Part shown: piece by piece, positions 46,763 to 50,331 of the stretch
Layout of the letters: each line of letters starts with the position of its first letter
Numbering within the stretch: position 1 is the stretch's first letter
Assembly: GCA_045159875.1 (NCBI GenBank)
Contig: CP067995.1
Coordinates: 1,504,001-1,568,000, forward strand
Origin: a cyanobacterium endosymbiont of Rhopalodia gibba
GTDB taxonomy: Bacteria > Cyanobacteriota > Cyanobacteriia > Cyanobacteriales > Microcystaceae
Direction of reading: 5' to 3'
DNA: 64,000 bases
Translations under genes and position numbers: made by a program
The notes under the pieces: generated by a model
What the model was told of the DNA's origin: nothing
Databases searched by the model: none
What the model saw: the letters and a program-made list of their open reading frames with translations, nothing else

Positions 46763-46999
46763 ATCTAGTTAGAGGTTAAAATTTGAGTAAGTATCACCAT
46801 ATAATAACACTCGGATTTATAAACGGCTTAACTTTGACTTAATATGGGATTATCATGATCTTTTCTAAAAACTAATTATCAATAATTCTATAAAAACAAG
46901 TTATCTTAAAAGAATAAAACATCTTGTTCATCGGGTAAAAATTGTCATTATCATTGCCTCTGTGAGGAATTCTTAAGCAAATGGTTAATGATAAGATGA

Positions 47000-47850
47000 G
47001 TGTAACGAGGTTGAATTTTTTCCATCGAAGCTATAAAAAAACTCACACTCATGTAGGAGCTTTATTGTGAGATACATCTGAAAGATTAGAAACCTTCATT
47101 AATTTACTATTCAGACTTCCAGCGTATTAAAATTTGGGTGGAACAATTCCCGGTGGATAAATTCCCTTCAACTAAGGGTTAATAACTCTCTTGGTTTAAG
47201 GGGTAAATCAAGTAACCAAGCGAATGTCGCCTTAATTAATTTAAACTTGGGATGTAATTTTTGTTATTCAATTAACTATTGAAGTTTAGATTTAAAGAAA
47301 TTAGGGAACAGTTGATTATCTACAAAATTGTTGAAGGGATTAACCTACTAAATCTTAATTCATATCTTCTTTCCATGATAGAAAAAAAGAAAAAAGAGCT
47401 TAGATTTAACTCATTTCAAGAGAACCACTAATCATATCCGAATTTTACTTGTAAATTAATGATATTGGCATATTAAAGAATTTATCTTCTTAACAGAATT
47501 GGGCTATTGTTTCGATTATTACAAAAATGAAAAAACACTAACGAGTAAAGAATTTCAGAAAAGATTGTAGAAGTCTGTAATAGTGTTCTAGTGACAAAAA
47601 GAGATTTAGGAGTAGAAATAATTTATCAACTGGTTCCCGTGCAAAAAAAATATACTGTTCAATTATGGAATTCTAAGAGAATACCCATCATTATCGCCAT
47701 CTAAAATAATAGGCAGCACATTTCATAACTCCTGTCCGACTTATACCGAAGTCAATGATATTGCTGATATCGAAGACTTTATCATTTTTATTAAATTGGT
47801 CAAGATTTTGGCTAAAATTGTTCAGTATCTGGAATATATTGAATTGCCTA
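47000..47850 (+). pseudogene. Probable M28-family peptidase, degraded
   Basis: GC-richer patch with broken frames; late fragments WNSKRIPII and TYTEVNDIAD loosely resemble FWxxGYPAI...YHxxxDT. Weak match. Confidence 0.35.
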
Positions 47851-48328
47851 ACGCACTTCTCCGTTCAAAATTAAGGACACCCAAGCCTAAAGTTACGCTC
47901 TTGTTATTTTCAATAAATCTTAAACTTACAGCATACCGTCACCCTTACAAGGTAAAATGATCTCTCTTTATTAGTTTCTATAAATTACCCTTTTAGTCCC
48001 TAATTATTCTTACTTTCTGTGAAAGAATTTATCATTATCTTTATTTTATTTAGGGACCAATTTTTTCGTAAATTAATAAATAGAAAATTTACTTTTTTAC
48101 AACATTAGTCAAGCAAACTTAAATTTATTTGATTAGAGGTAATTTAACTTTACTTATGGAAGCTATTTTAGCTTTTGCATTTTAGTAATCCCATTAATGT
48201 ATATGAAACAAACCAATTAAACTTACTTTTTAAACACTTATTAAATTGGTTAACAATTATTAATTGACAAGTAAAAAAATGGGTTAATTTAAATAAACTT
48301 AAGACATTAAAGTAGTTTAAACAAAGTG

Positions 48329-48493
48329 CCTACGCCAATGTTCCTAAGAGTGAATTTTCAAGTTTTTTTGTGACAAATAACCGCATTAAAAGTACAAAGT
48401 AGATTCTTCAAGAGACTTATTTGCCAATCGAACTAAAAAATTAATAAAACAGGGTGAGTATTCAACGTAGAAACTCAATAAATATTTTTAATT
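48329..48493 (-). pseudogene. Fossil duplicate of the hemH 3' end including the decayed CAB linker
   Basis: 48362-48493 aligns to 48567-48698 (about 80% identity by manual alignment) and continues as LKIHS*EHWRR. Confidence 0.88.
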
Positions 48494-48544
48494 GATATTT
48501 TTTTGATAAATCTTTAATATTTAATATCAATTTTTTTAAAAAAT

Positions 48545-49579
48545 TTAATATGTAATGTTTTGTGGTGTTTTTTTAGGACGAATAACCGCATCAAAAGTAC
48601 AAGGAGGTTCTTCAAGAGACTTAGTCACAAGTCGAGCTAAAGAATCGATAAAAATAGGGTGGGTATTTAACGCAGGAACTCGATAGAAATTTTTAATTCC
48701 TGCTTCTTTAGCAACTTCTCGATATTCGATATCAATTTCTTGAAGAGTTTCAATATGTTCCGAAACAAAACTAATAGGAACTACTAATAAGTCTTTGACT
48801 CCTTTTTTCCCTAATTCTTTTAAAGAATCTTCCGTGTAAGGTTTGAGCCACTCCACCGGACCGACTCTACTTTGATAAGCTAGAGTGAAATCATTTGGCC
48901 GATTGAGGGTTTTCATTATTAAGTGAGTACAAGCTTCGATTTCTGCTTGGTAGGGATCTCCGGCTTTATCAACATAACTTTGAGGAACTCCATGAGCGCT
49001 GAAAAAGATATGGATATGACGAGGATTTTCACATTTATCTAATTCTCGAGTAATTAAATCGGCCATCGCTGTCAAATAATCAGGATGGTCATACCAAGAG
49101 GGAATTAAAGTATAGTTAATTCGTGTAAGATCACTATCAGATTGCCACATTTCTTCAAGCACTCGGAAGCTAGATCCACTGGTGCTAATGGAAAATTGGG
49201 GATACAGAGGAAAAATGACTAGACGCTCTATGCTGTCTCGTTTAATGTGATTGATTGCCTCTTCAATAAAGGGGTGCCAATAACGCATCCCAATATAAAT
49301 TTGAGCATCTTGCCCAATTTCTGCTAATTTTTTTTCCAAAGCTTTCCCCTGAGCTTCAGTAATCCTTCTCAAAGGGGAACCTCCCCCAATTTGCTCATAA
49401 TTTTTCTTAGATTTTTCGCTTCTTAACCGAGAAATCAACCAAGCTAAGGGCTTCTGTAACCAAGGGAAAGGTAATCGAATAATTTCTGGGTCAGAAAATA
49501 GATTAAATAGAAAGGGGCGAACATCTTGTAATTGTTCTGGTCCCCCTAAATTCAGTAATAAAACCCCGACGCGAGCCAT
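48545..49579 (-). CDS. hemH: Ferrochelatase, 344 aa, lacking the C-terminal CAB domain
   Basis: [54 protein letters not shown]; ends [11 protein letters not shown]. Confidence 0.97.
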
Positions 49580-49706
49580 AATTTTATGTAGATAAATAAC
49601 ATTTTCAGATTCTTTGTTAAGTTTAACAATATATAGGCTCAATATTGAGATTTCAATGACAAAATACTCATAATCTAGTGAGTTACATAAGTCAGGGGAT
49701 AACGAG

Positions 49707-50331
49707 TTGGTCACGATTTTTTTAAGAACCTGGAGTCGTCAATATCCTTGGTTACATAACACTATTTCACCTTCAACACTCAGAGATGTTGAACGGGAAA
49801 TAGTGTTATGTAACCTTACAATTGAAAATATTCCTATGAAATCTGATACTGGGACTTTAGATTTATGTTATAGCAGAGGTCAAACCACTAACTTTCTTTC
49901 TACTAAACTGGACTTAACGTCTCATCAACTCTCCTATTTCAGGCAGTCAAAGCGGTTTTTGGGGTCAATTATGTTTACGAATGAGCTAAAAATGCCTTTT
50001 GCTCAATTGAAATGTGGTTGAGTTCATACTAGTTTTGCTCTTGTTGCTCTCCACAAAATGTAAGCTAAGCAGCTTGAAAAAATTTTTTACAAGTTTATCA
50101 GATTTTTAACCATAAAGGGGTTTTGACTATAATTGATCTATATAAGCCAACTAAACATTTCGTCTATTTTGTCCATCTTTAACTATTTTTATATGGATAT
50201 TTGAAATGAAGACAGCCTGGAAGTTACTTAACATTGACTTAGTGACAAAGTTCACTTCAGTAGATTTTAGAGGTTGTCAACAACTACTTTATGGAAGAGG
50301 AAGTTTGCAAGTAATTCAAGTTAAGAAATAA
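49707..50331 (+). pseudogene. Class I SAM-dependent methyltransferase (UbiE/COQ5-like), degraded
   Basis: [23 protein letters not shown] (eroded motif I), VHTS..ALHKM*, IFEMKTAWKLLNIDL, RGSLQVIQVKK*; stops and frameshifts. Confidence 0.85.

Follow-up and report, generated by a model that had tools for sequence, protein, structure and literature searches.

Several endosymbionts of rhopalodiacean diatoms encode a ferrochelatase (HemH) without its C-terminal extension (BMC Genomics 2026, PMC12903740). The sections of that study drawn on here give HemH lengths of 387, 371, 376, 344, 342, and 342 aa, with truncation by 40 or more amino acids, describe the extension of the 376-aa protein only as dissimilar, and link the state of the tail roughly to the status of the chlorophyll pathway. 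The HemH lengths in our five reduced genomes (387, 371, 376, 344, and 342 aa) agree with these values, and loss of the HemH tail in this endosymbiont group is already published (2026). A duplication scar was not found in print: neither the main text nor the two supplementary files of PMC12903740 use 'tandem' or 'duplication' of hemH. Compared to the sections of that paper drawn on here, our analysis differs in that the 376-aa extension is identified as the second copy of a tandem duplication read out of frame, and in that loss of the chlorophyll-binding CAB helix is placed before the duplication, an order that those sections do not discuss. Chlorophyll genes are also unevenly preserved among spheroid-body genomes (all broken in one, 9 of 10 intact in another; PMC5638926), which resembles the split in chlG and chlH among the reduced genomes analyzed here.

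In Synechocystis, ferrochelatase consists of a catalytic domain (residues 1–324), followed by a linker and then the CAB domain (PMC3563542). An engineered CAB-less enzyme of Synechocystis PCC 6803 (delta-347) is soluble, monomeric, and active with a higher kcat (PMC3563542), and removal of the CAB domain together with the linker inactivates the Synechocystis enzyme (Sobotka et al. 2008 and 2011, as cited in PMC3563542). The HemH described here, from genome G000, likewise retains the catalytic core and has no CAB helix, but it is cut about 10 residues earlier than delta-347, after RPKK (~residue 337), with the distal NMKMYPQERW also gone, and hence does without the distal half of a linker termed essential in the literature. 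Whereas delta-347 was engineered, the G000 protein comes from natural decay in a cell without a chlorophyll branch competing for substrate. Plant ferrochelatase 1 is a further CAB-less form, a plastid isoform of cyanobacterial descent that supplies haem outside photosynthesis. It is an old, maintained paralogue beside a CAB-bearing isoform, whereas in the present case the sole copy of hemH lost its tail by recent decay.

Structure and conservation of hemH

The window, the whole 64,000-nt stretch of DNA that was analyzed, is part of G000, a 3.06-Mb genome in two contigs. It carries hemH on the minus strand (48545..49579), encoding a 344-aa ferrochelatase that starts with MARVGV at 49579 and has an intact core and no CAB helix. 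The TAA stop codon (48545..48547, minus strand) lies six bases beyond the junction of a tandem duplication (see below). The enclosing open reading frame extends further upstream (48545..49714, minus strand), where a GTG at 49714 is a possible gene-caller start that gives 389 aa, the form in which the G000 protein appears in the database (P0001). HemH is a near-full-length match to the Pfam ferrochelatase family PF00762 (E = 1.9e-122; 408.7 bits, cut-off 27), with residues 4–321 corresponding to profile positions 2–316 of 317. Human ferrochelatase aligned with residues 3–323 (E = 4.8e-75), and 'fsahg' and 'ehietl' in HemH stand opposite 'fsahs' and 'dhietl' in the human protein; we take the conserved His of SAHG and the HIETL motif to have catalytic roles. 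The dN/dS ratio of the core (codons 1–336) was 0.05–0.12 in 28 of 28 genome pairs and 0.05–0.09 when free-living pairs were considered alone, showing strong purifying selection on this part of the enzyme. A search of G000 for a second ferrochelatase found none.

Using the limits of the linker given for region II (~residues 325–346; PMC3563542), we found that the G000 protein is conserved up to RPKK (~residue 337), beyond which TPQNITY stands in place of the distal NMKMYPQERW, and a complete linker is not present. The C-terminal hydrophobic helix with the E-x-x-N-x-R motif is absent from this protein, which stops at residue 344. A profile search for the CAB domain (PF00504) gave no match at the hemH locus of any of the five reduced genomes (G000, G001, G003, G004, and G006), and the same search, as a positive control, picked up the HemH tail in the free-living G002 and G007. 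An earlier, sequence-only reading of this DNA had claimed an intact catalytic core with the CAB tail gone at 344 aa, and both the PF00762 match and the C-terminal alignment bear this out. Judged from these comparisons, G000 HemH is a naturally CAB-less ferrochelatase, predicted to insert iron into protoporphyrin IX. A promoter and terminator scan of 47900–49900 returned nothing above shuffle expectation and no terminator-like site behind hemH, and a structure search by sequence retrieved no solved cyanobacterial ferrochelatase with linker or CAB domain.

The HemH C-terminus in related genomes

HemH was matched in all 31 related genomes and the end of the gene was read in 30 (G024 gave no locus). 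A CAB tail with the E-x-W-N-G-R helix is present in 25 of the 25 non-reduced relatives examined (G002, G005, G007–G023, and G025–G030), where HemH is 387–388 aa long. The non-reduced set includes three genomes of the same genus (4.6–5.2 Mb), and these also carry the tail, which speaks against its absence from the closest free-living relatives.

The five reduced genomes (2.5–3.1 Mb) differ in this region. HemH of G004 (387 aa) retains EVWNTR, that of G001 (371 aa) ends in a scrambled, hydrophobic tail, that of G006 (376 aa) has an extension, and the proteins of G003 (342 aa) and G000 (344 aa) are truncated. In G006, the frame passes from the linker into the second copy of the duplication out of frame and adds 29 junk residues, resulting in a length of 376 aa; the 'dissimilar extension' of one endosymbiont is thereby accounted for. 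Five additional sequences come from the protein database (P0002–P0006). Two of them keep the frame at 387 aa, with the motif Glu gone in P0005 (AKIWNTR) and both Glu and Arg gone in P0006 (ADIWNAG), and P0002, P0003, and P0004 are cut just past the RPKK position.

A second, distant ferrochelatase-like gene (24–28% identical) was found in most non-reduced relatives and is absent from all five reduced genomes.

A tandem duplication behind hemH

The end of hemH is duplicated head-to-tail, with the two copies directly adjacent and the junction at 48553/48554. Unit 1 (48554..48758, minus strand; aligned part 48567–48758) lies within hemH and ends ...RPKKTPQNI. Unit 2 (48337..48553, minus strand; aligned part 48362–48553) is decayed and non-coding, with four stop codons, and is 75% identical to unit 1. 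A repeat search returned three collinear blocks at a spacing of 204–205 nt, with identities of 89% over 36 nt, 79% over 53 nt, and 73% over 108 nt, and pairwise alignment of the two copies gave a mean column identity of 82%. Comparison of the region with itself recovered the tandem repeat with a local alignment score (153; 192 nt aligned per copy) far over that of 1000 shuffles (18.8 ± 2.5, maximum 33), and the size of the repeat is therefore ~190–205 nt. The sequence-only reading had described a repeat of ~130 nt located ~205 nt downstream: the duplication itself is real, but it is longer than described (192 nt aligned), and its copies adjoin without a 205-nt spacer.

At the junction, linker codons for QEHW are joined to codons for EHIETL, and GAACAT occurs at both sites. 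Compared with copy 1 of G006, copy 1 of G000 has lost ~13 nt near 48566, in the distal linker. In genes without the duplication, the corresponding unit measures 218–221 nt and is not a multiple of three. The ancestral unit may have measured 218 nt, 221 nt, or 213 nt, the last being in frame with 5 nt gained later.

Contigs of X5, a run from another study, cover 48004–48449 (two differences) and 48508–48658 (no differences). The second of these reaches across the junction and the stop codon, and no joints are reported. Copy 2 is not covered by the contigs of X6. Both copies were found in one contig in X1 and X2 only, a sample that is possibly the source of this DNA, and in no single X5 contig. 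The X2 contigs that span the region derive from an RNA library, although contigs cannot show transcription.

Self-comparison of other hemH regions identified the tandem repeat in G006 (period 218/219) and G003 (212–215) in addition to G000 (205/204), and no tandem repeat in G001, G004, G002, G005, and G007; three of eight same-genus genomes are therefore carriers. The junction (...AACATT/ACATATT..., slash at the join) is identical in G000 and G006, and nearly so in G003. A species tree built from 13 syntenic genes around hemH (12,438 nt) has the topology (G004,(G001,(G006,(G000,G003)))), and both of its internal nodes are 100% supported, making G001 the sister to the duplication-bearing clade. 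Because the duplication is found only in G006 and (G000, G003), it maps to one branch after the G001 split, and it provides a shared derived marker of this clade. The comparison of 3' ends across the endosymbionts thus shows a duplication common to G000, G003, and G006, and a CAB-less state that is also present in G001.

The linker ghost and the sequence at the tail position

The end of unit 2 preserves a ghost of the distal linker (region II; 48329..48364, minus strand). Its translation, NLKIHS*EHWRR, corresponds to NLKIYPQEHWRG in G001 and to NMKMYPQERWQWG in free-living relatives, and the linker ghost proposed by the sequence-only reading is confirmed by this match. The stretch at the CAB-coding position (48200..48328, minus strand) aligns with G001, G003, and G006 at 0.68–0.72 identity. 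The G001 tail is 0.69–0.72 identical to the copy-2 tails of G000, G003, and G006, close to the values between second copies of different genomes (0.72–0.74). Identity between copy 2 and copy 1 is 0.75–0.86 overall (G006: 0.86; others: 0.75–0.77), whereas the tails are only 0.31–0.43 identical to working CAB DNA, and none of 16 local-alignment tests of tail against working CAB DNA survives correction (lowest p ~0.02). A tblastn search with full-length HemH downstream of the G000 gene matched copy 2 and the linker and not the CAB part. Instead of decayed CAB sequence, the tail might be DNA of another origin that a deletion placed here, which would change the mode of CAB loss and not the order of events. 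A ~31-nt deletion over the E-x-x-N-x-R codons, invoked in a hand alignment, was dropped as a candidate, a single 9-mer being its sole support.

The HemH tail of G001 (CSFLTTVLFLVYLSSLTYLLAN; locus L033) remains hydrophobic and includes an (ACTT)n run. Its rate of evolution relative to the other tails is approximately neutral, and this tail is therefore probably junk and not a retained membrane anchor. Further downstream in G000, the ~1.4 kb behind hemH (46950–48330) holds no open reading frame of at least 60 aa, and tblastn of the neighboring genes of four relatives on this interval gave no match except a short stretch common to a 72-aa open reading frame of G001. The spacer between hemH and the next gene ranges from ~0.85 kb to ~1.8 kb across the reduced genomes.

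Proposed order of events at the hemH 3' end

Based on these data, we infer that the CAB stretch was probably destroyed before the duplication, which would be a later scar in the hemH of a reduced, non-photosynthetic cyanobacterium whose features agree with those of nitrogen-fixing endosymbionts of rhopalodiacean diatoms. G001 has no duplication yet shows the same ruined tail, and copy 2 is far closer to copy 1 than the tails are to CAB, so the CAB stretch was most likely dead first. With photosynthesis lost, the chlorophyll-binding helix would no longer have been useful, and in the common ancestor of G000, G001, G003, and G006 its coding stretch would have been ruined by deletion, frameshift, or decay. 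The protein would then have ended in junk shortly past the linker, the state that G001 appears to have kept. Later, in the ancestor of G006 and (G000, G003), a head-to-tail duplication of ~218–221 nt would have arisen, its ends adjoining the two GAACAT repeats in the EHIETL codons and the linker QEHW codons. With a unit that is not a multiple of three, translation would have run out of frame into copy 2 and reached an early stop, and each lineage would then have seen its own decay of copy 2 and the distal linker. The 344-aa protein of G000 would result from the loss of ~13 nt together with the TAA that closely follows the junction. The resulting enzyme, with the core (residues 1–324) and about 13 first linker residues up to RPKK, is predicted to insert iron into protoporphyrin IX without chlorophyll-linked control, and such an enzyme suits G000, whose magnesium branch (chlH, chlG) is broken.

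It is unlikely, in our view, that the duplication arose separately in G006 and in the ancestor of G000 and G003, promoted by the GAACAT repeats at a freely varying 3' end. In a maximum likelihood tree of the copies (220 nt), copy 2 of G006 groups with copy 1 of G006 (support 93.7/90), the two share G006-specific states, and the second copy of this genome is the least diverged (0.86 vs. 0.75–0.77), all as expected from separate origins. This grouping may reflect either a separate G006 duplication or gene conversion between tandem copies, which accounts for the pattern equally well. Approximately unbiased (AU) tests rejected none of three copy topologies (p = 0.10, 0.18, and 0.91), including monophyly of the three second copies (p = 0.10). 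However, the same odd join (...CATT/ACATATT...) is found in G000 and G006 outside the short repeat, which points to a single origin.

The sequence-only reading had assigned the duplication a causal role: it would have struck a full-length hemH and set a stop before a live CAB stretch, with the tail eroding afterwards. Being out of frame, the duplication does cut translation short (after 29 junk residues in G006), and the linker ghost is located exactly where this account predicts. It requires, however, that the duplication preceded the G001 split and then collapsed to one copy in G001. Tandem copies are readily lost by recombination, and the duplication may have been present in the four-genome ancestor and have collapsed in G001 in this way, as one extra event that leaves no trace. 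Against this, G001 is the outgroup to the carriers and shows no trace of a duplication with CAB already gone, and the tails are much further from CAB (0.31–0.43) than copy 2 is from copy 1 (0.75–0.86), although both would have been neutral from the same moment. We therefore regard a causal duplication as quite improbable and favor CAB loss before duplication, in which the duplication later scarred a gene end already free to vary and did not cause the loss of the tail. Finally, although contigs spanning both copies in one piece come only from the possible source sample (X1, X2), nothing was found in favor of an assembly artefact that hides a full-length gene. This is hardly conceivable, given that the copies differ by 25% and would therefore be neither collapsed nor created by an assembler, that X5 contigs bridge the junction and stop and cover part of copy 2 with 0–2 differences, that diverged versions of the duplication occupy the same place in G003 and G006, and that G000 has no other hemH.

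Photosynthesis genes and the fate of the CAB tail

In G000, psaA/B, chlG, and chlH are interrupted by stop codons, and only remnants of Photo_RC were found; the chlG and chlH pseudogenes lie outside the window (G000:C1:457115-457928 and 2150745-2154626). G003 resembles G000 in these features. Photosynthesis and, in G000, chlorophyll synthesis have been lost, in agreement with the non-photosynthetic cell suggested by the sequence-only reading. G000 and G003 carry chlG and chlH as pseudogenes, but both genes are open in G001, G004, and G006, placing decay of the chlorophyll branch on the G000 and G003 branch, later than that of the CAB tail. Given that G001 and G006 are without the CAB tail yet have chlG and chlH open, CAB loss is not a simple tracker of chlorophyll-pathway loss.

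The hemH case is one of ordinary reductive evolution by a tidy mechanism, and it confirms that a cyanobacterial ferrochelatase can do without its CAB tail once photosynthesis is gone. The natural truncation points at ~residue 337 could be used to gauge how much of the linker the enzyme needs. More tentatively, the endosymbiont clade could display the ferrochelatase C-terminus at successive stages of natural deletion, which we consider less likely than not. The series may run from a tail with frame and motif kept (G004, EVWNTR), through one with the frame kept and the chlorophyll-ligand residues replaced (P0005, AKIWNTR; P0006, ADIWNAG), and may continue with a scrambled, still hydrophobic tail (G001) and a tail cut after RPKK (G000, G003, and three database proteins). 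If this is true, the enzyme would not need the distal half of the 'essential' region II in vivo, and the CAB tail would have been lost before chlG and chlH, both open in G001 and G006. The tail would then serve chlorophyll-protein assembly and not control of the haem/chlorophyll branch point itself.

Three remnants of HLIP/Scp one-helix genes were found in G000 outside the window (G000:C1:2451703-2451882, 2633388-2633522, and 1761168-1761434). In the first, the motif reads ETLNVC and a stop codon falls three residues short of the end; the second has KHLNVR at this position, and the third contains several stops. All three were found by tblastn with one-helix proteins of relatives and missed by the PF00504 scan of G000, which is too insensitive for short one-helix proteins; the reading that G000 has no HLIP was dropped after tblastn recovered these degenerate remnants. 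In G001, an open gene (G001:C1:999105-999224; locus L038) encodes a one-helix protein with an intact ETLNGR despite the CAB-less HemH of that genome, and its G000 counterpart is the degenerate remnant at 2451703-2451882.
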